From: a virus
DNA length: 64,000 nt
Reading direction: 5' to 3' (one strand)
Virus record (IMG/VR): IMGVR_UViG_3300033442_000004
Span: 1 to 64,000 of that record
In this document: positions 4,970 through 44,980 of the stretch, piece after piece
Layout of the letters: every line of letters starts with the position of its first letter
How positions within the stretch are numbered: the stretch's first letter is position 1
Notes under the pieces: generated by a model
What the model was told of the DNA's origin: nothing
Database searches by the model: none
Seen by the model: the letters and a program-made list of their open reading frames with translations, nothing else
Made by a program: the position numbers and the translations under genes

Positions 4970-5317
4970 TCAGCCGCCGCGCTTCGCCGAGGCGTACGGG
5001 TAGCGCTTGGAGTTATCGATGCGGGTCTCTCGCTTGAGCGGGACGAACTTCACCGGCAGCTTTCCGATCTCAGAAAGGATCTCCTTGATGCGATCACCAT
5101 CGTTCCGCGGATCGAGCACGCGCAGCTGATCGGTCAATGAGTCGACGGCGGCGCTCTCGGCGTTGGTCAACCGGCGCCGTGCGTGGATGGCGGTGTAGGA
5201 GTTCTCGTAGGTGAACTTCTGCTTGGGTGCCGGCTTCGGTCTGGCCAGGAAGGCGAAGGCCTTCATCAGGCCGCCCAGGATATCGGTAGCTGCTTCCACT
5301 TTGTGCTCCTTTTGCAT
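4970..5317 (-). CDS. Hypothetical phage protein
   Basis: 115-aa ORF downstream of TTGACG and an operator motif. Confidence 0.6.
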
Positions 5318-5328
5318 TCAAACAAACG

Positions 5329-11023: not shown

Positions 11024-11259
11024 AACGATCTCCGGGTGATCGGGTCGATTCCGTCGTCACGAAGTTGGGCGAACACCTGGTCCCGCAGCCGATCGGCAAG
11101 CGTCTGCGACGAGTCCAGGAGGGCTGAGATCGACAGCTCCACCTGCTCGGGGGAGCCGACGATGAACGACGCCTCCAGCCGGCAGAGACATGCCTCGTGG
11201 ACACGTCTCGCCGCCTGAAACCTGAGGAAGGCGTCGGTGACCTCCGGGCTACGCGGCAT
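11020..11259 (-). CDS. Hypothetical phage protein
   Basis: MPRSPEVTDAF... 79-aa ORF overlapping neighbours. Confidence 0.55.
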   Translation of the reverse strand: MPRSPEVTDAFLRFQAARRVHEACLCRLEASFIVGSPEQVELSISALLDSSQTLADRLRDQVFAQLRDDGIDPITRRSF

Positions 11260-12196
11260 TGGTGGGCGCGTGGACGACTGGCAGGCCACGTCCGATGCTC
11301 GGGCGAGCGAGATCGGGGTGGTCCTGCATCCATTTCTGAACGAACCAGAGCTGACCGCAGCCGCCGCCGATCGTGTCCTGACCGGCCGGATCGAACACGC
11401 GGACGTCGTAGCCGCGCTCGACCAGCTTGAGGCTGAAGTCAGACGCCAGCTCGCGCTGGTGATCATTGGTCGCCGGCATGCCTTCGGAGCGCTCGCATAC
11501 GACGCTGACGGTCGCGTTCCAGACGTGCGGGTCGAACAGAGCGCGCAGGCGGTCCGCGTCCTCGATCGAGGAGTTGCCGTCGTGGGCGCAGTAGTTGAAG
11601 AACGGGTTGCGACCAGTGACCTCGTGCCAGACGGCGCCCTCGGCGGCGATCTGAGCCAGGGTCAGCTTCTTCTTGAACGGGACCAGGAAGTCCCGTGCAG
11701 CGTCGGTCGACTCGTGGACCGAGAACTGCAGGCCGATGGTCGGGATCTCCATCGAGATCTCGCGGACCACCTCGTAGTTGATGATCGGCGCCGAGGTCGA
11801 GATCAGGAGCGCTGCGTTGGGATACATCCGGTACAGCTGGCGCAGCGCCGGCACCAGACCCTTCAGGTTCAGCAGCGGTTCGCCCATCGACATGAACATG
11901 ATCTGCAGGCGCTTCATCTCGGACGCCTGGATGCCGGTCTGCTCGATCGAGTGCTCGACCTGGGCGATGATCTCGTCGGTCGACAGAGACCGCACGAAGT
12001 TGTCGCCGGCACCGCAGAAGCGGCAGCCTACCGGGCAGCCCGACTGAGTGGAGCAGCAGATCACGGAGCGGGTGGCATAGTCCGGGTACTTGTAGAGAAC
12101 GGCCTCCGCGACAGCAGTGCCGTTGTCGAACACGAACTTGGCGACGTTCTGCGCGGCGTCGTCGATCCGCTTTACGTTGGTCCAGGCAGGTCTCAC
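11249..12196 (-). CDS. RlmN/Cfr-family radical SAM RNA methyltransferase-like protein
   Basis: ICCSTQSGCPVGCRFC (CxxxCxxC), MSMGEPLLN, LQFSVH, GGGCGQL; GTG start overlaps the upstream stop. Confidence 0.85.
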   Translation of the reverse strand: MRPAWTNVKRIDDAAQNVAKFVFDNGTAVAEAVLYKYPDYATRSVICCSTQSGCPVGCRFCGAGDNFVRSLSTDEIIAQVEHSIEQTGIQASEMKRLQIMFMSMGEPLLNLKGLVPALRQLYRMYPNAALLISTSAPIINYEVVREISMEIPTIGLQFSVHESTDAARDFLVPFKKKLTLAQIAAEGAVWHEVTGRNPFFNYCAHDGNSSIEDADRLRALFDPHVWNATVSVVCERSEGMPATNDHQRELASDFSLKLVERGYDVRVFDPAGQDTIGGGCGQLWFVQKWMQDHPDLARPSIGRGLPVVHAPTNAA

Positions 12197-12780
12197 GCGA
12201 GAAGTTCCTTGAAGCTGATGCCGTCCGAGGGGACGATGCAAAGGTCTTTCTTCAGGCCGGTCAGGATGAAGCCAACCGTCCGGGTTCTGACGTCGTAGGC
12301 AACCTGCCGACCCCGAGACTTCCGGGTCGGGCAGTAATGGTGAGCGACCAACTCGTCGTCGCCGCCGCGTGCGAGTGCGATGGCTGCCTTGGTGAGGCGG
12401 TCGGGAAGGCGGGCGGCGTTGCACCAGCGCATCCAGGTGAGGATGCCGAGGGCGCGATCGACGTCGTCTCGCTGAGGAGCGGTCTTCGTCTTGCCGTCGA
12501 AGGGCTTCATGGAGCTGAGGAGTCGAATGCGTTCGATCTCGAACAGCTCGGCGCGGGACATGCCGATCATGTTCCAGCCGCCGGAGCGCTGGCCCGATGT
12601 CAGCCAGCGACGTTCCTGGTCAGGCGCCTTGTCGATGACCTCAACGGCCTCGACGAGCAGCTGCCAGACGACATCGCTGTGCCGCGCTTTCTCGCCCTTC
12701 AGGGCCCACGCCAGCTCGCCACCATGGACGAGCCAGCTGAGCGCCTGGATGCGAGCCTCAAGCGGGGACGAGTTGGTCAT
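12193..12780 (-). CDS. Hypothetical phage protein
   Basis: MTNSSPLEAR... 195-aa ORF. Confidence 0.6.
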   Translation of the reverse strand: MTNSSPLEARIQALSWLVHGGELAWALKGEKARHSDVVWQLLVEAVEVIDKAPDQERRWLTSGQRSGGWNMIGMSRAELFEIERIRLLSSMKPFDGKTKTAPQRDDVDRALGILTWMRWCNAARLPDRLTKAAIALARGGDDELVAHHYCPTRKSRGRQVAYDVRTRTVGFILTGLKKDLCIVPSDGISFKELLA

Positions 12781-20838: not shown

Positions 20839-21617
20839 CAGGCAACCTCCAAACTCCGGTTGAAGTTGTTCTTGCCGGCGCCGTGGATGGCGATGGTGAT
20901 GTCGGCGTTCGCCTTGGTCCGGTTGCCGCCGCACAGCATGCAGGATGCGCACTGCACGGCCTTGCCCATCTCCGCCGATGCAGGGCAGTGGCCCTCGCCA
21001 GCGAGCTTCGGATCGGACTTGCCGCGGACACGGTAGGTGCGGAAGCCGAGAGCCTTGGCGAGCACGCGATCGACCTCGGTGTCACAGGACGCCATGCAGA
21101 AGTCCGCCAGCTCGGGGATCTCGCGCCACATGTGCGTGTAGCCGGTGAGGTCAGCGACCTGGCTCAGCGCCGTCTTCCAGACCTTGATCGGCACGGCTCC
21201 AGGATCACCGTAGGCGCCGACGCGGACCACCTTGCGGGCGAGGAGCTTCCTGGCCTTGGCCAGCGGCACCTCGGGATACTTTCCGCGTGTGTAGGCATCC
21301 CAGACCACGCGAGGGCCACGCATCAAGGTGACGTAGCAGGAGCGGCCGACGTTGGTCAGCAGACCCGTCTTGTGGTCCTTGATGACCGTGCCGCGATGCG
21401 GGCAGTTGCCGCAGATCGAGATGTCGTCGCCGGTCTGCACGGCCTTCATTGGGTTGATGCCGTCGCGCAGGATGTAGATCTGAACCATCGGTCCAGTCTT
21501 CGAATTGGAACCACCGTCCTCGAGTCCGGTGGCAATGCAAATAATCTGCTGGCCGTCGATCACTGACGGGCCGCGGTACAGGACAACGCCGTTCACGGGT
21601 CTCTCCTTTGCATTCAT
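20838..21617 (-). CDS. Cys-rich phage protein (possible Fe-S/metal binding)
   Basis: NSKTG, ICGNCPH, SCYV, RVGAYGDP, TGYTH, CPAS..CASCMLC. Confidence 0.7.
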   Translation of the reverse strand: MNAKERPVNGVVLYRGPSVIDGQQIICIATGLEDGGSNSKTGPMVQIYILRDGINPMKAVQTGDDISICGNCPHRGTVIKDHKTGLLTNVGRSCYVTLMRGPRVVWDAYTRGKYPEVPLAKARKLLARKVVRVGAYGDPGAVPIKVWKTALSQVADLTGYTHMWREIPELADFCMASCDTEVDRVLAKALGFRTYRVRGKSDPKLAGEGHCPASAEMGKAVQCASCMLCGGNRTKANADITIAIHGAGKNNFNRSLEVA

Positions 21618-26804: not shown

Positions 26805-29030
26805 TCAGGCTGCTTCCGCCAGCGGGTCGATCTCGTCGTCGACCGGCTCGGCGTTCTGGTTGTTGTCGTTCAGCGCCAGCGCAGCCCTCGCCATTTCCGC
26901 CTGCTGTTGCAGGAGCTGCTGCTCTGCATGCAGGAGGTCACAGTAGTGCTTGAGCTGGCGCTGGGTTTGGGCAGCGTCCGTGCGGTTCGAGTACGAGTAG
27001 TACGGGTTCGGCTCGATGATCAGCTTGAGCAGCGCGTACTTCGAGCACAGCTCGCGGTAGCGCCGTTCCATCGCCGTGATCGGGCACTGCACCTCCGGCT
27101 TGTCGATTTCGATACCGAGCCGGGACAGGGCGGAGTGCGCCTTGTCGGTCGGGGTATCGACGGTCGAGTTGCCCCGGAGAGCGGTGCCGAGCGCCGTCAG
27201 CTCGGTCTTGAACAGCAGCAGGTCGCCCGGCGCATTAGCGAACGTCGCCGGCGTCATGCCGACGATGCCCCTCAGAGCCGAGTCGAGATCGTTGAAGGAC
27301 TTCTGGTGCAGTCCGGTGAACGTCGAGACGTCGATCTTGGCCTGCAGATCGGGGATCAGGTCATCTCCGAACAGCGTCCAGTTGTCGCCGAGCGCAGCGT
27401 GATCCTCGCTCTGGATCAGGATCGTGGTGCCTTCCTCGACCAGACCCAGCTCGAAGGAGGCCGAGATGACTTCCTTCATCACGCTGAGCGAGACGCTGTT
27501 CTGCTCGGTCGAGACCTTGACGTACTCGTTACCGCGGCGCCGGCTGTAGAGGCCGTTGCTGACGCGCTGCAGGTAGAAGCCGCCCTCGGCCAGGTCGACG
27601 TCCTCCTGCGACACGAGGACGCCACCACCCTCGGTGACCACCATCACCCTGCGGCGACGGACGGTCTTGCCACGGGTCCGCTTGCTCGCCGGCACCTTGA
27701 AGGTGTCCAGCTCGACGACCTCGGGATCGCCGAGGGCATTGAGCACTTCCTCGCGGAAGGCCCGCTTGCAGCGGATCCAGAGCACTTTCTGGCCGACCAA
27801 CTGCGCCATCTGGAAGCGCGAGTAGGAGTAGCTGGGGTTGTGCTCGATGACGATTTTGGCGTCGCGGCACCAGCTCATCCGGACCGTGGTGTCTTCGAAC
27901 TTGTCGAAGTGAACCCAGCCATCGGCCAGCATCCCGGTCTTGCAGTTGATCTTCGGAACGGTCGACGACAGCGTCTTGCCGCGCCACTTCACAACCTCCC
28001 GCAGCTTCTCGGTGCGAGAGACGCCGAGAGACTGGGTTGCTTCCTCGAACAGCTCGACGGCACCGATCAGGTCTTCAGCCGTGTCGACGGCGGTCTGACA
28101 GTTTCGGATGAAGTTCTGCTCATACTCCTCGGTCAAGCGAGCCAGGGTCGCCTTGGTGTTGTCGTCATAGGCCAGCTCTTCGCGGGACAGCGTCACCTTG
28201 AGCGAGCCGATCGGGGCATCGAACAGGACGGCATCGCTGTAGTCGAGGAAGCCCGTCGTCTTGATCTGCCGCATGTCGAAGGGGTACATCACGCAACCCA
28301 TGCGGACGTGCGGACCGTTGAACGGCACCGTCCCGTTCTTGTAACGGGTGTAGTTGTCGCCCTGGCTCGTGACGACCGGGTCCTTCCAGTCGATCGCCGG
28401 GGTGATCTTCGGCCGCGGAGTGAACGACCAGAGGATGCTGCGAGCCCGATCATGGAACTCGCGGATGTCTTCGCGGCGAACCGGGAAAGACACCTCCAGG
28501 CCGGTCGGCTCGTCCGACGGCGCCTCGATCAGCAGGCGCATGGTCGGCGCACCGCTCTGGGACAGCGAGAGCACGTAGGTCCGCATCATGCCGCCGTGGT
28601 AGGACGTCACTGTGTAGGAGCCGGAGCCCGAGTCCGAGATCAGGTAGGCGTATGGGCTCTTCGAACCCAGGCCCCAGCCGCCGACCTGGTCGTTGCTGCC
28701 GCGCTTCGTCGAAGCGTAGAGGCGGGCATAGACGTTCTTCATGTCGTCGGGCGACATGCCGGGACCGAAGTCACGGAACGTGATCGTCGGCGAGAGCGGC
28801 GTCGGCAGCCGGATCTGCGGGATCTTGTCTTCAGGGATGTCGTCGCCGTACTTGAGGCGCGAGCCATCCCACATGTTCGTCGTCAGCTCGCGGATCGGGT
28901 AGCCGATCTTGTCCTTCGCCAGACCTGAGATCTGGGCGTAGAACGCCACCGCGTTGGCTTCGAACGAGATGGCGACTTCATCCTGCACGCCAGCTGCGAC
29001 GTCGACATGTTCTTGCAATCCGAGTTTCAT
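26805..29030 (-). CDS. rIIA: rIIA-like protein (GHKL/Hsp90-type ATPase N-domain)
   Basis: IRELTTNMWD, RDFGPGMS, STKRGSNDQVGGWGLGSKSPYAY, TGLEV, MGCVMYP, SREELAY. Confidence 0.85.
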   Translation of the reverse strand: MKLGLQEHVDVAAGVQDEVAISFEANAVAFYAQISGLAKDKIGYPIRELTTNMWDGSRLKYGDDIPEDKIPQIRLPTPLSPTITFRDFGPGMSPDDMKNVYARLYASTKRGSNDQVGGWGLGSKSPYAYLISDSGSGSYTVTSYHGGMMRTYVLSLSQSGAPTMRLLIEAPSDEPTGLEVSFPVRREDIREFHDRARSILWSFTPRPKITPAIDWKDPVVTSQGDNYTRYKNGTVPFNGPHVRMGCVMYPFDMRQIKTTGFLDYSDAVLFDAPIGSLKVTLSREELAYDDNTKATLARLTEEYEQNFIRNCQTAVDTAEDLIGAVELFEEATQSLGVSRTEKLREVVKWRGKTLSSTVPKINCKTGMLADGWVHFDKFEDTTVRMSWCRDAKIVIEHNPSYSYSRFQMAQLVGQKVLWIRCKRAFREEVLNALGDPEVVELDTFKVPASKRTRGKTVRRRRVMVVTEGGGVLVSQEDVDLAEGGFYLQRVSNGLYSRRRGNEYVKVSTEQNSVSLSVMKEVISASFELGLVEEGTTILIQSEDHAALGDNWTLFGDDLIPDLQAKIDVSTFTGLHQKSFNDLDSALRGIVGMTPATFANAPGDLLLFKTELTALGTALRGNSTVDTPTDKAHSALSRLGIEIDKPEVQCPITAMERRYRELCSKYALLKLIIEPNPYYSYSNRTDAAQTQRQLKHYCDLLHAEQQLLQQQAEMARAALALNDNNQNAEPVDDEIDPLAEAA

Positions 29031-29069
29031 TGTTCAGTGTCCTTTGTTTCGTGATGTCGTGGGTGGCGA

Positions 29070-30083
29070 TCAGGCGCTGAGCAGGCCTTCGTCGTCGAAG
29101 AGATCGAGGAAGGAGCGCTCGCGAGGCCGGTTGATGAGGTAGATGGCGTCATCCAGCTCTTCGGCGCTGACCTTGATGTCGGCCAGGTACTGAGCGACCT
29201 GCCGCGGGTACTTGAAAACCAGATCCTCGAGTTCGCGCTGGCGCAGCTGCTTCAGCATCCGCATGGTTCGCAGCGGCCTGCTGCTGCCGAAGCTGCTTCC
29301 TGCCGACGAGCCCGACCAGGATGAACGCCTCGGTTCTTCTTGCTGACCTTTGGGGTCACGCTCGATGACGAACTTCGATGCGTCGATCTTGACCATGTGG
29401 TCGCGCAGCTCGAACAGGTGCTGGACGCACTGCGTCTCCCGATCGGTGTGCTCGTTCTCGTATCCGACCGAGAGGTTCGAGCACTCCGGCACGATGCCCA
29501 TGTAGATCTTGGTGTCCGTGAGGACGCCGGTCGGATCGTTCTTGAACCGGCTGGGCAGCTGAGCAGCCAGGGAGTCGCCGAACGCATCCGACGCCGTCCG
29601 TCCCCGCTGGTGGGTGATGACAGACGTGAAGCCACGACGGTCGAAGGCGATGGCAGCTTTGATGCCATCCAGGAACTCGGGCGTCTCGTTGGCGATGCCA
29701 CCCGATCCCTTGCAGCCGACCTCCTCACCGAAGTGGAAGACGTACAGGCCAGGCACCTTCGCCTCGATCATCTTGATCATGATGAAGTTGCCGGCCGCAT
29801 CGTCGGCGCCGAGGCAGTTCGACTTGGACTTCTTCGGCAGATGGATCTTGGTGCCGGTCATCTCGATCTGCTGGAAGCCTTCATCCCGGTGGACGCTGTC
29901 CGTGTGGGATGACCAGAGGATCGTCGGCTTCTCCTCGCCGATGATCATGAACCGGTTGCCGAACTTGTCGGTCTGCACCCCGAGCGGGGTGATGAACCGA
30001 TCGATGTAGGCAAGCTCGGTCTTCGAGCCATAGGGACGACGATGCGACAGCATCGCCTTGAGCATCTCAAGGTCGTTGGACAT
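29070..30083 (-). CDS. M28/M20-family zinc peptidase-like protein
   Basis: SHTDSVH, LGADDAAG, GEEVGCKGS, AFDRRG, NLSVGYENEH. Confidence 0.85.
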   Translation of the reverse strand: MSNDLEMLKAMLSHRRPYGSKTELAYIDRFITPLGVQTDKFGNRFMIIGEEKPTILWSSHTDSVHRDEGFQQIEMTGTKIHLPKKSKSNCLGADDAAGNFIMIKMIEAKVPGLYVFHFGEEVGCKGSGGIANETPEFLDGIKAAIAFDRRGFTSVITHQRGRTASDAFGDSLAAQLPSRFKNDPTGVLTDTKIYMGIVPECSNLSVGYENEHTDRETQCVQHLFELRDHMVKIDASKFVIERDPKGQQEEPRRSSWSGSSAGSSFGSSRPLRTMRMLKQLRQRELEDLVFKYPRQVAQYLADIKVSAEELDDAIYLINRPRERSFLDLFDDEGLLSA

Positions 30084-30099
30084 TTCAGTTCCTGTTGGA

Positions 30100-31704
30100 T
30101 TAGCGGGTTGGATCGTAGTCATACCGAGCGGCCGGCTCAGGGAGGCCCCGGAGCATCTGGTCGCGCAGTTGTCGGTCGACGAGATCGCCCATGTAGCGGG
30201 CCATCTCTTGTTGCTGGCGTGGATCGAGTTGGGGCGCAGCCACGAACGGGTCGTCGATGATCACCTGGTCAGCACGCCGACCGGTGACGCGAGTTTCGAC
30301 CGTGTTGGTGACGGCGTTATACTCGCGCTCAAAGCGGCTCTTGCTCAGGTACCGCATGTCGCGGTGCCACGGCTTTTCACCGATGAGATCACCGATGGTG
30401 ACGGTGCCCCAGCGCTCCTCCTCGATCGCCTTGATCTTCTTCGCCGGCAGCTCCTTGCCGTCAGCATCGAAGCGCCACTCCACGCTGTTGTGGACACGAC
30501 GGTCGCCCTTCTGAACCATCTCGGTCTTGGGATGGTTCTTCTTGGTGACGGCGCAGTGCTCGCCGTGCTCGGCGAAGTAGTCGTGGCCCCAGTAAACGCC
30601 TGGAGTGGCCATGGAGACCTTGAACTCGTTGGCGTAGAGCTTGCCAGAGCCACGGCAGGTGAAGGCGTAGGACTGATACGCCTGGCTGGACCATTCCTGC
30701 TCAACACCGTGGATGTGCTTGAAGGTGTGCGCCGGCTGACCGCTGCGCATCTTCGGGCAATACTGGTAGAGCAGGGAGCGACCGGCGCTGCCGCCACAGC
30801 TGATGTACTTCGTGCCGAGCGGCAGGCTTGCCAGCGTGCCGTTGTAGGTCTCGAAATAGTCGCCGTTCATGATGACCATCTCGATGTCGTCGAAGTACGG
30901 CATTACGTATTCCCAGCGCCGTTCGGGATGCTCGATCTTGAGCAGCTTCGCGCCGTCCGGGAAACGGATGTTGTCGCCGTGGTAGTAGGTGTAGCCCTCA
31001 GCCTTCATCGCAGCGATCATGCGCTGGATGTCGCCATAGCAGCGGCCGAAGATCTTCTTCTCGGGCCAGCACAGGCAACGCGACTGGATGCGGCCCTCAG
31101 CGTTCTTGGTGTAGGCCACAGCCAGGTCGCCGGCCCCGTAGGGCTCGGTCGGCCAGTGCGGGTCCATCCCTTCGAACGTGTGCTTGCCGTCCATGCACGA
31201 GCCGGGACCTTCCTTGTAGATGCGGACGATCTCTTCCGGGCTGAACGCAAAGAAGATCTCGCCGTTGGGATCGATGGCAGCGATCAGCTTCCGGCGGTGA
31301 GCGTCGGGGATCCTGTCGTCGGTCTCATAGAACCGGGTGATGTACCGACCCGGGTTGAGCGAGGTCGTGCGGTCGATCGTGCCGTGCTCGTCGCTCTCGG
31401 TGAACGCGATCTTCGACGGATCGCGCGGGCAGAGGTGAGCGAAGTGATCCTTGATCGGCTCAAGGTCCCACGCCTCAGGCAGCGCCTTCAAAGCGCCGCT
31501 CGCGAGCCGCTCCTGCTGCCGGCCACGCCAGTCCGGAGCCTGGGCCATGCGCCGCGGCTGCACCTTGTAGCCGCGCTCCTCGGTAAGGGTCTTCGCGGCC
31601 TTCGCTGCCTCGCTGCCCTTGTCGTAGGGGCCATAGTCCGGGATCGGCACATCTTTCATGGCGCCGGCCCCGTCCGGTTCTAACCGGACCAGGTAGAACG
31701 ACAT
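30100..31704 (-). CDS. Large hypothetical phage protein
   Basis: 534 aa; GPGSCM, RCLCW, MPYFD motifs; RBS GGAGG. Confidence 0.75.
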   Translation of the reverse strand: MSFYLVRLEPDGAGAMKDVPIPDYGPYDKGSEAAKAAKTLTEERGYKVQPRRMAQAPDWRGRQQERLASGALKALPEAWDLEPIKDHFAHLCPRDPSKIAFTESDEHGTIDRTTSLNPGRYITRFYETDDRIPDAHRRKLIAAIDPNGEIFFAFSPEEIVRIYKEGPGSCMDGKHTFEGMDPHWPTEPYGAGDLAVAYTKNAEGRIQSRCLCWPEKKIFGRCYGDIQRMIAAMKAEGYTYYHGDNIRFPDGAKLLKIEHPERRWEYVMPYFDDIEMVIMNGDYFETYNGTLASLPLGTKYISCGGSAGRSLLYQYCPKMRSGQPAHTFKHIHGVEQEWSSQAYQSYAFTCRGSGKLYANEFKVSMATPGVYWGHDYFAEHGEHCAVTKKNHPKTEMVQKGDRRVHNSVEWRFDADGKELPAKKIKAIEEERWGTVTIGDLIGEKPWHRDMRYLSKSRFEREYNAVTNTVETRVTGRRADQVIIDDPFVAAPQLDPRQQQEMARYMGDLVDRQLRDQMLRGLPEPAARYDYDPTR

Positions 31705-31874
31705 TGCAGTCCTCCATTTGCTGTTATTTGCATTCAAGCTATCGTGCAGGCGCACGTATCCCATTGGTGGAGCAGGGAAAACCTTTGAAATTTGAGGTTT
31801 GCCCGGCTGCCGTTCTTAGCGTGAAGTTGCATTCATGCGCACGGAAGCGCAAGAGTTATTTACAAACAACCGCT

Positions 31875-31949
31875 CTAACGCGGTCTATCTCGTGGATTGT
31901 AGAAGCGAACCCGCCGCACGGGCCCGGCCTTCATCGGCTTGTTGACCAT
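31875..31949 (-). CDS. Micro-peptide 3: MVNKPMKAGPVRRVRFYNPRDRPR
   Basis: Hand-translated; shares the RxxRxxxxRDRP motif with two adjacent micro-ORFs. Confidence 0.55.
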   Translation of the reverse strand: MVNKPMKAGPVRRVRFYNPRDRPR

Positions 31950-31958
31950 GGCTCCATC

Positions 31959-32033
31959 TCACTGGTGTTGAAGATTGAGGTGGAAGCTAAGGGATGGTCT
32001 GTCCCTTGCGTAGTAATACCGGATCTTTCGCAT
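31959..32033 (-). CDS. Micro-peptide 2: MRKIRYYYARDRPSLSFHLNLQHQ
   Basis: Hand-translated; GGAG RBS; shared motif. Confidence 0.6.
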   Translation of the reverse strand: MRKIRYYYARDRPSLSFHLNLQHQ

Positions 32034-32048
32034 TCTCACGTCTCCGTC

Positions 32049-32147
32049 TCATGGAGTGGGTGGTACGAGAAGATGCAGGGTTGGTCTGTCCCGAGAGGTG
32101 AACAGGCGGAACCTCCTGATGGTCCCGCAGAAGTTTAGTGTGAGCAT
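32049..32147 (-). CDS. Micro-peptide 1: MLTLNFCGTIRRFRLFTSRDRPTLHLLVPPTP
   Basis: Hand-translated; AGAGGAG RBS 5 nt upstream; shared motif. Confidence 0.6.
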   Translation of the reverse strand: MLTLNFCGTIRRFRLFTSRDRPTLHLLVPPTP

Positions 32148-32675
32148 TTGCGCTCCTCTTTTTTGTTTGACGCGCTCTCGGTGTGAGTCGTCTGTTAGTC
32201 AAGTTCCCTGCCTACAAGTTATGCTAGTCGTAGAAGTGACGTCGAAGCCCAACCGAGCACTTCGAAGTCGGCGGTTGGTGGGGACCTCATCAAGCATCCC
32301 CAGTTAGACCCGATCAGTTTTCCTCGACGACGTAGTCGATGAGGAATGACTCGAGTCCATCCTTGTGCGCCGCGTCGCATGCCTCATGGATGCTGAGGTA
32401 TGCGCCGTGCCAGCGTTTGCCGGGCCATTTGGCGCGAAGCGTGTTGCCGTTCAGCCTGGCGTAGAGCACAGGCTTGCCGGCTTGTTCGTCAGAGACCTCG
32501 GACACGATCGATCCCCTCGAACGCGCGGGCCTGCTCGCGGAGGCCGGCGATTGTGATCGCGGCGTCCACACGGTCGTCCTCGATCATCGCAAGCGTTGCC
32601 TCGCGGCGCCGACGCTCCAGGTCAGCCCACGATCCACGGTAAGGCGTGATCGGTCCCTTGGTTGAAAGTCCCATG

Positions 32676-33407
32676 TTATTCGTCCTTCCAGTCGATGGTG
32701 AAGGTCCCCTCGGGACCTGGTATGAGCGCAGCGTCGAAGAAATCGATCGCCTTGCGGATTGCGGTCATGTTCGGCTTGCTGCCGCGCTGTGCTCGGAGCG
32801 CGGCGCAGCTGGTGAAGTAAAGCCCTGTACCCAGCTCGGCATCGAGAGCGCGAACCGAGATGCCGTCCTCCCTGGCTCGCTTGCGGATGGCGTCAGCAAG
32901 CGGCTCGCCGAGGATCTTCAGCGGCAGCTCATGCGAATTGAACAGGGTGACGCCCAGCTCCTGGGCGCGCTTGGTGATGTCCCACTTCGTGCGGTGCGGC
33001 AGAATGTGGGAGATGCCCGTAGCGCCCTTGGTAGCAGCGGCACGCCTGATCTCCTCGTCCTCGCCGCGGGTGAACGGCGGCCGGCGGTAGGTGAAGCCGG
33101 TAGAGCTGCGCTTGCCCGAGACCGATTGCCTCGACCGGCCCGGCAGCAGCGCGTGCAGATCGTGCAATCGCAAATGTCGATTGCGCCTGATGATGTCGAT
33201 CTCGGCATTGGTGTACTGCTTGCCGCATCTGACAAAGAAGCCGTCACCGGACCTCTCGGCACCAGAACTTTTCGAGGCACGACGGACACTCGATGACCTC
33301 GCTGGATTTGTCGCCTTCTTCGTGGAAGTCGTAGTCGCAAAAGGGACAATCGAAGTGGGTTCTGATGTACCCAAGGACATGCTCGGAGCAGCTATCACGG
33401 AGGTCAC
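32676..33407 (-). CDS. Putative DNA-binding protein (Myb/HTH-like repeats)
   Basis: YTNAEIDIIR...LPGRSRQSV and FTRGEDEEIR...LPHRTKWDI repeats, plus an Xre-like C-terminal helix pair; start uncertain. Confidence 0.6.
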   Translation of the reverse strand: MTSVIAAPSMSLGTSEPTSIVPFATTTSTKKATNPARSSSVRRASKSSGAERSGDGFFVRCGKQYTNAEIDIIRRNRHLRLHDLHALLPGRSRQSVSGKRSSTGFTYRRPPFTRGEDEEIRRAAATKGATGISHILPHRTKWDITKRAQELGVTLFNSHELPLKILGEPLADAIRKRAREDGISVRALDAELGTGLYFTSCAALRAQRGSKPNMTAIRKAIDFFDAALIPGPEGTFTIDWKDE

Positions 33408-33662
33408 TCATGTGCGGGCAAACCGCTTGTTGATGTCGACGAAACGCCGCTCTTGCCGGCGCTGCCGTCCTCGATCTGATTTCGAGAACGGCTCGTGGTG
33501 TCGCTTCCAGGTGCTGGTTTCGAGCAGGAAGCGGAAGGCGGCGCCGATGGCGCGCTGCTCAGGATCTCCCTTGCAGCACGGGTGACGCATTCGGCGGTAC
33601 TGTTGAAGCATTGGAGCGCTCCCTCTGCAGTCGGCAGGCGAGATAGGGGCCAGTGCTGCCGG

Positions 33663-33854
33663 TCATCTCGCGCAGCTCCAGCGGTTCGGGCAGCCGATCT
33701 CCCAGTTGCCGCACTGCTCGCACGTCCCACCGCGACCGCAGCTGTAAGTGCTGGTCACCTGTGTGCAGACGAGGCGAGGCAAGGGGAGATTGCTGTTGCC
33801 TTCGTCGCAGCCGGCGAGCAGCAACGCGGCGATAAGGATGATGGATCGCTTCAT
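33663..33854 (-). CDS. Small Cys-rich lipoprotein-like protein
   Basis: MKRSIILIAALLLAGC lipobox. Confidence 0.55.
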   Translation of the reverse strand: MKRSIILIAALLLAGCDEGNSNLPLPRLVCTQVTSTYSCGRGGTCEQCGNWEIGCPNRWSCAR

Positions 33855-34228
33855 GCGGCGAACCCCAGCTCGTGGCGATAGCGCTGAGGCTTCGGCGCCT
33901 CGTACCAGAAGGCGATGCGCGGCGGCTCTTCGTAGACCGCGATGACGGTCGGCGCCCGACCCATCTTCTTGGTGTACCAGCTGGCCGATTTGCGGAGTGT
34001 CCGGCCGCTCTCGCGGGCAGTGTCGATCAGCAGCAGCTCGAACTTGTCCGGGACATTGGCGCCGAACGGGATGAACGGGATGCCGAGGATGTGGGAGGCG
34101 TAAACCGCGGCGACAGCGCCGGATCGGCCGGGGCCGGTGACGCAGCCGACATGCTCAACCCGCTGGTTGAAGAGGACGGTTCTGATGCGCTGAGCGAACT
34201 CGGCTTCGGAGACGATGCGGATGGTCAT
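33851..34228 (-). CDS. Phosphoribosyltransferase-like protein
   Basis: TGPGRSGAVAA and LLLIDTARESGRTL (degenerate PRPP loop). Confidence 0.6.
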   Translation of the reverse strand: MTIRIVSEAEFAQRIRTVLFNQRVEHVGCVTGPGRSGAVAAVYASHILGIPFIPFGANVPDKFELLLIDTARESGRTLRKSASWYTKKMGRAPTVIAVYEEPPRIAFWYEAPKPQRYRHELGFAA

Positions 34229-43846: not shown

Positions 43847-44476
43847 TCACGGCACCGGCCTGAAGTCGTGCAGATCGAGATCACGGCCTAGCGCCGCAAC
43901 GAACTCAGCCGGCTTCTCCTTCGCCTCGAAGGCGCGCTGGACCTCGTCGGGGTGGTCGCTGATCAAGTCGGCGTAGAACCACTGCTTCTCCGCCTCATCC
44001 CGACAGTCCTGGATGAAGTTGTCGCGCTCCACGGTCGAGGGCTTGTACTGGCTGACGAACGCCTTGCACCGGGCTCGAGACGTTCGGTACAGGTCGCGAA
44101 GCTTGTCGGCGCCCTTGATCACCGGCTTGACGTCTTCCTCGTGGAAGTTGAGGCAGTACATCATGAACTCCGGGACGAACTCGAAGTCCCAGCAGATCGC
44201 GCCGTCCTTCTCGTCTTCCGTCATGCCGCTCCAGACGCTCTCGATGAGCGGGGCCATCTCCCACGCCGCCCAGCGCATGCCACGGGCACCGTAGTCCTCG
44301 CAGTATTGGGACATCTGCCGTTCGGCATCCTTGAACGGATGGTCATCGGGCAGCGTTGTGGCGATGAGCAGACGGGTGTCTTCGAGCACCGCGTAGGCTG
44401 CCATCGCTGTCTCGATCACGAGGTAGTTGGTCTTGATGGTCTCAGGCTTAGCCACTGTCTTCTCCTTTGCATTCAA
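43847..44476 (-). CDS. Hypothetical phage protein
   Basis: About 200-aa ORF; true start is probably the GTG after AAGGAG. Confidence 0.65.
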   Translation of the reverse strand: MNAKEKTVAKPETIKTNYLVIETAMAAYAVLEDTRLLIATTLPDDHPFKDAERQMSQYCEDYGARGMRWAAWEMAPLIESVWSGMTEDEKDGAICWDFEFVPEFMMYCLNFHEEDVKPVIKGADKLRDLYRTSRARCKAFVSQYKPSTVERDNFIQDCRDEAEKQWFYADLISDHPDEVQRAFEAKEKPAEFVAALGRDLDLHDFRPVP

Positions 44477-44836: not shown

Positions 44837-44980
44837 TCATGGCCGCGCTCCGTCGTCGTTGCTGTAACTCGGCGCCTTCGCGTTGCGCTTCTTGTTGGGC
44901 ACAACGCGGGGCTTGTACTTCGGCGTCCGCAGATCACGAGCGATCGGCGAGCGTCGGCTCTGCGTCTTTCGCTTCTTCAT
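44837..44980 (-). CDS. Small basic phage protein
   Basis: SPIARDLRTPKYKPRVVPNKK. Confidence 0.55.
   Translation of the reverse strand: MKKRKTQSRRSPIARDLRTPKYKPRVVPNKKRNAKAPSYSNDDGARP

Follow-up and report, generated by a model that had tools for sequence, protein, structure and literature searches.

A family of arginine-rich micro-ORFs ending in R-D-R-P upstream of a conserved gene in BDU-MI-1-like Bradyrhizobium phages, with a predicted role in regulation

Background

This study concerns three short open reading frames (micro-ORFs) that lie in tandem on the minus strand of a viral DNA stretch of 64,000 nt (IMG/VR record IMGVR_UViG_3300033442_000004, positions 1 to 64,000; hereafter the window) and encode peptides with a shared arginine-rich core ending in Arg-Asp-Arg-Pro (R-D-R-P, or RDRP). 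Judged from sequence, they appear to be regulatory or otherwise functional micro-ORFs, for which a mechanism is predicted here. The closest described systems are arrest peptides and regulatory leader ORFs. Passages of PMC12992588 and PMC10987492 describe RAPP-like arrest peptides, to which SecM with the motif RAGP, ApcA with RAPG, ApdA and ApdP with RAPP, and the RQH family including RGPP and RDGP belong. According to these passages, about ten adjacent, less conserved N-terminal residues are needed as well, the sequence past the motif is not conserved, and Asp at the second position partly preserves arrest by ApdA and ApdP (PMC12992588, PMC10987492). The micro-ORFs resemble this group, as far as these passages characterize it, in having a short conserved motif with Arg first and Pro last, RxxP being similar to RAGP and RAPP, and in selection that ends at the motif. 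They differ from the core R-[A/G/S/D]-[P/G]-[P/G] given there in that all 17 copies identified in this work read R-D-R-P, with Arg, always encoded by AGA, at the third position. RAPP-like peptides have a spacer of at least 30 residues and a signal or membrane segment, whereas only 1 to 18 residues precede RDRP in the micro-ORFs, and the genes downstream are not secA, secDF or yidC but those for a 534-aa (amino acid) protein, a peptidase and rIIA. The micro-ORF peptides are also distinct in being 22 to 39 aa long, without signal or membrane segment, phage-encoded and sometimes arranged in tandem, and arrest itself is in their case a prediction.

The leaders of trp, his and pyrBI are familiar cases of attenuation. 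Leader ORFs of the attenuator kind, including bmrB-bmrCD and mef/mel, are treated in passages of PMC4191407, PMC4335068 and PMC5021804, and coupled ribosomes prevent formation of the terminator hairpin according to a passage of the last of these (PMC5021804). As in the arrangement depicted in these passages, the short ORFs here precede, or extend through, a hairpin that resembles an intrinsic terminator and lies ahead of structural genes. This hairpin, with its U-rich run, is present past the last micro-ORF copy in all 13 loci analysed, although it folds better than shuffled sequences (z-score of -2.2 or below) in five of them only. A run of regulatory codons, as in attenuators, is absent; there is one invariant AGA, and each micro-ORF peptide contains three to six Arg. 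Further differences from attenuators are that the peptide itself is selected, that no antiterminator fold was found in the folded loci, that the hairpin position varies, and that operator-like sites follow the terminator.

In Erm-type leaders, the motif +X(+) stalls erythromycin-bound ribosomes and XP(X) causes pausing, and induction of ermB involves two leader peptides, as stated in passages of PMC6238534 and PMC8274638, respectively. Compared with the motifs in these passages, R-D-(R) has the form +X(+) and R-P-(X) the form XP(X). A resistance gene with a sequestered ribosome-binding site (RBS), as in the Erm-type systems, does not follow; the next gene is not a resistance gene and starts 142 to 204 nt past the last RDRP, beyond the hairpin. 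That pausing on the micro-ORFs might depend on a drug would be pure conjecture by analogy.

In Sinorhizobium and Bradyrhizobium, peTrpL and rnTrpL are a leader peptide and an attenuator RNA with a second role in trans. We take them to share with the micro-ORFs a short leader ORF on a small terminated rhizobial transcript with potential functions in cis and in trans; the two are presumably dissimilar in sequence and lie in different genetic surroundings. In the literature listings, beginnings of abstracts and passages covered, no phage-encoded arrest peptide, no account of these ORFs and no paper detailing the BDU-MI-1 genome was found.

Results and discussion

Three micro-ORFs in an intergenic region of the window

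The three micro-ORFs are arranged as follows, in the order of transcription.

32049 to 32147, minus strand: micro-ORF 1 (ORF1), 32 aa, MLTLNFCGTIRRFRLFTSRDRPTLHLLVPPTP; core motif at 32082 to 32117; GGAG 5 nt from the ATG.
31959 to 32033, minus strand: micro-ORF 2 (ORF2), 24 aa, MRKIRYYYARDRPSLSFHLNLQHQ; core motif at 31995 to 32030; alternative GTG start at 32039.
31875 to 31949, minus strand: micro-ORF 3 (ORF3), 24 aa, MVNKPMKAGPVRRVRFYNPRDRPR; core motif at 31881 to 31916; one residue beyond the Pro.

Their peptides had been quoted in a first-pass annotation of the window and were recovered at these positions; the codons it listed for the conserved motif residues are correct. Also in agreement with it, a GGAG-type RBS precedes each ATG, the gap being just 2 nt for ORF3, and the region from 31875 to 32147 is lower in GC (55.3%) than the window (61.3%). 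The hexamer TTGACT, which had been placed upstream of ORF1, is present at 32197 to 32202 on the minus strand, but a promoter scan from 31400 to 32700 did not reveal a sigma-70-like pair. The genome of 120,772 bp was translated in six frames and searched for the pattern R[RK].R....RDRP. Three matches were obtained, each at the micro-ORF locus, whereas 0.05 matches are expected by chance from residue frequencies and a mean of 0.04 was obtained in 100 first-order Markov simulations.

ORFs 1 to 3 share one reading frame and are separated by TGA codons. Their fusion by read-through of TGA was considered and discarded as unnecessary, since the two copies in the related locus L007 do not share a frame and the majority of relatives have just one. 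A 144-aa plus-strand ORF at 31704 to 32138 was likewise rejected as the source of conservation, the variable positions being its first codon positions. Among the loci described below, the sense frame is open throughout, whereas each antisense frame is closed in at least one locus.

Distribution of the micro-ORF family

Over 45% of its length, the part of the window from 29000 to 34000 aligns with Bradyrhizobium phage BDU-MI-1 at 71% DNA identity. Genes are arranged in the same order in both; in BDU-MI-1, several hypothetical genes are followed by a gap, genes for hypothetical proteins of 483 and 330 aa, and rIIA. The window represents a Bradyrhizobium phage or prophage of the BDU-MI-1 type. 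Relatives were retrieved from IMG/VR, genome contigs and metagenome contigs, the queries being the 534-aa protein and an alignment of proteins related to it. After removal of duplicates (L008 is the same as L003, L012 as L004, L013 and L014 as L005, and L031 has the same micro-ORFs as L028) and of L002 and L006, which start within the 534-aa gene and have no upstream sequence, 13 distinct loci remained, window and BDU-MI-1 included.

In all 13 loci, a micro-ORF is located directly upstream of the 534-aa gene. In total, 17 copies were obtained, three in the window, two in L007, two nearly identical ones in L028 and one in each of the ten others; besides its two intact copies, L007 holds a degenerate remnant of a third. 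From the end of the last RDRP to the start of the 534-aa gene, 142 to 204 nt were counted across the loci. The unit adjoins this gene even where the upstream neighbour is a different one (L027, L010 and L028), and a strong terminator stands ahead of it in L028. Orthologues of copy 1 are present in L007 and as the proteins P0001 and P0002; the orthologue of copy 2 in L007 begins with MRKRFYNARDRP.

Searches were extended beyond this synteny. A profile of 11 copies matched two of 1.84 billion representative proteins, P0001 and P0002, and a collection of about 15 billion proteins contained none of the eight exact micro-ORF sequences from the loci that were looked up. When the complete records of G001, G002, G003 and BDU-MI-1 were searched, the syntenic copy alone scored convincingly. 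Among 401 genomes of the family of G001, the profile found a true match in G001 alone, and six other matches had E-values of 0.005 to 0.009, which is the level expected by chance. The peptides gave no usable match in the ESM Atlas, no Pfam or NCBIfam family at E <= 10 and no PHROGs match at E <= 0.01; in Rfam, the region gave two matches at chance level (E-values of 0.39 and 0.92). The earlier statement that no described family has this motif is in line with these four family databases. From the sequences available, the micro-ORF family appears to be confined to BDU-MI-1-like Bradyrhizobium phages.

Selection on the peptide up to the proline

With the Pro of RDRP counted as position 0, all 17 copies agree at R(-8), R(-3), D(-2), R(-1) and P(0), and 15 of them have N(-5). 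Reading frame and ATG are intact in every copy. The codons behind three of these residues are diverse. For R(-3), five codons are used (CGG, AGG, CGA, AGA and CGT), for D(-2) GAC and GAT, and for P(0) CCA, CCG and CCT. Pairwise comparison of the RDRP codons in the first 12 copies gave 128 synonymous and no non-synonymous differences. These values bear out the proposal of the first-pass annotation that synonymous codon usage points to selection on the peptide. Loci in which the DNA word is kept and the frames are broken, named there as the result that would speak against it, were not detected among the 13; partial exceptions are the degenerate third copy in L007 and the protein P0002, from which the 'RP' of copy 1 is missing.

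A sharp change occurs at the Pro. In five close relatives, the 'MIVLK' loci, differences over the 22 codons up to the Pro are distributed 20:10:65 over the three codon positions, with 54 synonymous and 26 non-synonymous ones. Over the five codons past the Pro, the distribution is 27:33:25, with four synonymous and 40 non-synonymous differences. The tail past the Pro varies from 0 aa (copy 1 of L028, which has an immediate stop) and 1 aa (copy 3 of the window) to 117 aa in L005, where no stop is nearby and a 139-aa product runs into and overlaps the next gene. Tail frames are not preserved among relatives. Since tails range from 0 to 117 aa, the sequence past the Pro is not under selection as protein.

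Ahead of the core, copy 2 has just the start Met or at most three residues. Within each subgroup, first copies have a common N-terminal pattern, and the first 10 residues are conserved there as well as among the orthologues of copy 1. In sequence variants from the runs X20, X13 and X9, differences in ORF1 and ORF2 are synonymous or conservative, and there are none in ORF3. One variant of ORF1, T17N, is a shift toward the family consensus. Taken together, selection acts on the peptide, over 13 to 22 residues ending with R-D-R-P.

An invariant rare arginine codon

All 17 copies have AGA as the codon for R(-1). No Arg codon is rarer in the phage, where AGA accounts for 3.6% of the Arg codons in 56 long ORFs, and the same holds for 49 long ORFs sampled from one Bradyrhizobium genome (3.6%). 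The copies are related by descent, so that 17 of 17 are not 17 independent events; along the same tree, the codon for R(-3) changed repeatedly and the one for R(-1) never. The codons around it tend toward rarer synonyms, too. At R(-3), the most common Arg codon, CGC, never occurs, nor does CCC at P(0). The G+C content at third positions of the nine core codons is 0.51, compared with 0.77 in long ORFs. At the nucleotide level, GA[CT]AGACC is invariant in the 17 copies. The only tRNA genes of the phage are those for tRNA-Trp(CCA) at 66648 to 66720 and tRNA-Asn(GUU) at 77408 to 77483; a tRNA-Arg gene is not among them.

A terminator-like hairpin after the last copy

In the window, ORF3 runs into the following structure.

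31858 to 31898, minus strand: terminator-like hairpin; the 5' arm GACCGC (31880 to 31885) lies over the AGA-CCG of ORF3; U-rich run at 31861 to 31867.

The stop codon of ORF3 is in its loop, the predicted folding energy is -11.6 kcal/mol with a z of -2.89, and two of 200 shuffled sequences fold as well. A scan of the window for consensus terminators detected none on the minus strand. Downstream of the last copy, each of the 13 loci has a GC-rich hairpin with a U-rich run. In five of these, the codons for (N)-P-R-D-R-P constitute the 5' arm, namely in the window (z of -2.9), BDU-MI-1 (-2.9), L027 (-2.2), L029 (-4.7) and L030 (-3.9). The hairpin of L009 overlaps the Pro codon, its z of -1.3 not being significant; a small hairpin with a z of about 0 begins 10 nt past the Pro in the five 'MIVLK' loci, and in L007 and L028 a hairpin without significant fold is located about 30 nt downstream of the Pro codon. 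The stop codon is in the loop in the window, L003 and L010 and just past the stem in L011. In seven of the 13 loci (BDU-MI-1, L009, L027, L029, L030, L004 and L005), it coincides with the U-run or lies beyond it. If the RDRP region was masked as though occupied by a ribosome, the long hairpin was lost in the window, BDU-MI-1, L027, L029 and L030.

Leader, operator-like sites and RNA contigs

Further elements surround the micro-ORFs in the window.

32148 to 32313, minus strand: leader of 166 nt between an 85-aa gene and ORF1; strongly conserved with L007.
32280 to 32301, minus strand: hairpin GGGGA...TCCCC directly past the stop of the 85-aa gene; kept in L007; no U-run.
32185 to 32193, minus strand: element AGACGACTC in the leader; single occurrence in the genome.
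31827 to 31835, minus strand: operator-like copy 1, core TGAATGCAA, 46 nt past the last RDRP.
31726 to 31741, minus strand: operator-like copy 2, CTTGAATGCAAAT, just upstream of the RBS of the 534-aa gene.

At the site matching 32280 to 32301, Group B relatives have a CCCG...CGGG hairpin. The element AGACGACTC has nine bases in common with the core of the T7 promoter, yet it occurs only once, and its interpretation as a repeated promoter was dropped.

The operator-like motif TTTGC[A/T]TGAATGCAAA has palindromic arms (TTTGC and GCAAA), and its two copies after the hairpin are kept in relatives. Its core TGAATGCAA was found 11 times in the window, where 0.32 occurrences are expected, always on the sense strand of the next gene, and 18 times genome-wide. 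Usually the motif lies 5 to 30 nt ahead of the RBS of the next gene; the sites include 579 to 587, 5312 to 5320, 21608 to 21616, 31728 to 31736 and 44467 to 44475. Two of the sites, 31736 and 114050, have GGGATACGTGCGCC ahead of the motif. Probably it serves a phage regulator as operator or promoter element. Upstream of the micro-ORF unit, no operator-like motif is present.

In the RNA-seq run X20, from a carrier of a 96%-identical variant, a single 313-nt contig with a depth of 27 covers 31936 to 32247, and X19, a run guessed to be RNA, yielded a 195-nt contig at 31848 to 32040. Such contigs indicate presence only and carry no strand, ends or expression level. Over a 1.1-kb stretch, the contigs of X20 and X19 are confined to 31848 to 32247 and 32466 to 32600, and the uncovered parts are uninformative.

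Interpretation of the micro-ORFs

The first-pass annotation had offered three functions without choosing among them: inhibitors or decoys of a host target, processed signalling peptides or RiPP-like precursors (RiPP, ribosomally synthesized and post-translationally modified peptide), and ribosome-arrest peptides. Arrest agrees best with the data, given the exact end of selection at the Pro and the invariant rare AGA; RiPP-like precursors fit poorly with tails of 0 to 117 aa in frames that are not kept, and inhibitors or decoys continue to be candidates. We tentatively favour the micro-ORFs as translated leader ORFs for pausing or arrest in cis, with a confidence somewhat short of even. According to this proposal, the nascent peptide would act in cis on the ribosome translating it, its Arg-rich, aromatic core occupying the upper part of the exit tunnel, and the ribosome would slow down or arrest at Asp, Arg (always AGA) and Pro. 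The paused ribosome would be positioned on or beside the 5' arm of the hairpin, which resembles a terminator and closes a short transcription unit; when standing on R-D-R-P, it would overlie this arm in five loci and be immediately next to the hairpin in another five. The pause could then set the level of transcriptional read-through toward the genes for the 534-aa protein, the peptidase and rIIA, or the fate of the short RNA itself. Selection on the peptide, its abrupt end at the Pro, the fixed AGA, the hairpins and the synteny are observed; the pause or arrest and its coupling to termination are inferred. A cis-acting pause would directly account for the conserved peptide, the boundary at the Pro, the rare codon before it and the terminator adjoining or overlapping the motif. 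A fifth fact to be explained is the tight linkage to the downstream 534-aa gene.

Several observations weigh against this interpretation. The loci were fetched via the 534-aa gene, and its constant presence downstream is for that reason partly built in, which does not apply to the presence of a micro-ORF every time. The distance of the hairpin from the Pro codon is inconstant and its z is not significant in eight of the 13 loci; folding of the loci revealed no conserved alternative antiterminator fold, and alifold on five loci gave a weak consensus from a poor alignment. The two operator-like motifs together with GGGATACGTGCGCC suggest that the 534-aa gene has a promoter of its own, and control by read-through may be unneeded. 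P0002, represented by four contigs in Logan, lacks the residues 'RP' and is otherwise identical to the sequence of the X13/X20 strain derived by hand from the variant table. Finally, duplication occurred at least two independent times, once in window/L007 and once in L028, which would be a better fit to the dosage of a trans-acting product.

Such a product, an Arg-rich micropeptide that is released and binds a protein or RNA of host or phage, is the main rival, in which our confidence is somewhat lower. The core would be a short linear motif and the tail an unselected run-on into the terminator. An RBS of the GGAG type for each copy, one to three copies per locus with duplications as predicted for gene dosage, and the conservation of the N-terminal 10 residues agree with it, and a terminator of its own, no operator motif upstream and the RNA-seq contig from a carrier would fit expression from a resident prophage. 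The invariant rare AGA is left unexplained in this case, however, and tails of 0 to 117 aa, including the 139-aa product of L005, would be difficult to accommodate in a single product that folds or binds. In addition, terminated transcripts might be without a stop codon where this is located at or beyond the U-run (seven of 13 loci), copy 2 has just one to three residues ahead of the core, only two of 1.84 billion representative proteins match, and there is no structural or family lead. An AT-hook was also considered and rejected; its motif is RGRP, and Asp stands where Gly should be.

The invariance of GA[CT]AGACC in nucleotides raises the question whether an RNA or DNA signal, such as a small RNA, a protein-binding word GAYAGACC or a terminator arm, is conserved and the ORFs are incidental. 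In its favour, the remnant of the third copy in L007 has lost its reading frame yet retains GATAGACC in the terminator hairpin, the AGA of L027, L029 and L030 is base-paired with UCU in their hairpins, and the region is covered by RNA contigs. Nevertheless, this appears improbable. Because of the bias toward third codon positions (20:10:65) and the synonymous RDRP codons (128 to none), the DNA word fails as an explanation, with the exception of the AGA codon. R(-3) alternates between the CGN and AGR families, the sense frame, unlike any single antisense frame, is open in all loci, copies 1 and 2 bear the motif without a terminator, and nothing above chance level came from Rfam. Still less probable, we consider, are tRNA-Arg(UCU) traps or minigene-like elements, in which a stall of peptidyl-tRNA-Arg(UCU) before Pro would sequester scarce tRNA or trigger drop-off and thereby shift host translation. 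Lambda bar minigenes and the effects of AGA/AGG codons are the parallels. AGA immediately before Pro in 17 copies, arrays of several copies and a phage devoid of its own tRNA-Arg are compatible with such traps, but long phage ORFs use AGA as the host sample does (3.6% each), so that the phage would suffer too, and most relatives have a single copy. The most improbable reading regards the micro-ORFs as RiPP-like or otherwise processed precursors, in which the conserved part up to RDRP would be a leader and the nearby peptidase would free a variable core. A conserved N-terminus, a hypervariable C-terminus, tandem copies and a peptidase gene two genes downstream would suit it. RiPP precursors have a core of defined length and a modifying enzyme; here, tails of 0 or 1 residue occur, tail length and frame shift between close relatives and follow the RNA hairpin rather than the peptide, and the Pfam scan of ten neighbouring ORFs revealed no recognised RiPP-modifying family.

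Returning to pausing or arrest in cis, the micro-ORFs might even constitute a new arrest or pause class in phages, with a stall at R-D-R-P, an obligatory AGA in the P or A site, and control of the terminator or a tRNA-Arg-UCU trap ahead of the rIIA operon, the stall motif being present singly or in tandem on a short transcript; we give this more specific version a somewhat lower probability than the general one. In such a class, arrest would require a particular codon in addition to the peptide sequence. If stalling takes place, R-D-R(AGA)-P would be added to the arrest sequences, regulation by arrest peptides would be extended to phages, and a simple system for the joint effect of codon identity and nascent-chain sequence would be at hand. 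If the peptides act in trans, a new family of phage effectors of 13 to 22 residues would result. Gene callers almost never report these micro-ORFs, though they are among the best conserved features of the intergenic region across the phage clade. Peptide selection that stops at one Pro, combined with a codon fixed to the rarest synonym, could serve as a signature for the discovery of regulatory nascent peptides from sequence.

Downstream genes and other genes of the phage

The genes following the micro-ORF unit in the window are listed below.

30100 to 31704, minus strand: 534-aa gene, starting MSFYLVRL...; no Pfam family; weak match to PHROG 6980.
29070 to 30122, minus strand: peptidase gene, 350 aa; PHROG 4191 'peptidase' at 5e-81; Pfam M28 below the cut-off (E-value of 9.7e-4).
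26805 to 29030, minus strand: rIIA; PHROG 612 at 2e-86.

A 534-aa protein without assigned function and an M28 peptidase had been expected at this place. Both genes are there, the peptidase being identified by PHROG 4191, while its placement in M28 rests on the match below the cut-off. In the Pfam scan of ten neighbouring ORFs, the matches were M28 (weak), HATPase (weak) and a UvrD-type helicase; a recognised RiPP maturase was not among them. Distant relatives of the 534-aa protein, with about 23% identity over residues 112 to 404, are found in 187 Klebsiella phage records, all annotated as hypothetical. Where the position could be judged, these matches are often located about 4 to 5 kb from the end of the record.

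Two further genes on the minus strand of the window were noted. The region from 11249 to 12424 encodes a 391-aa radical-SAM (S-adenosylmethionine) protein distantly related to RlmN/Cfr (TIGR00048, E-value of 2e-28, 99 bits compared with a cut-off of 290). An RlmN/Cfr-like enzyme altering the exit tunnel, sensed by the peptide, was considered and rejected as a general account, since its catalytic part is unmatched in three related records bearing micro-ORFs; the N-terminal 73 to 78 residues alone are matched, in two of the three. At 44837 to 44980, a 47-aa ORF rich in Lys and Arg is present, for which Pfam and NCBIfam gave no match.

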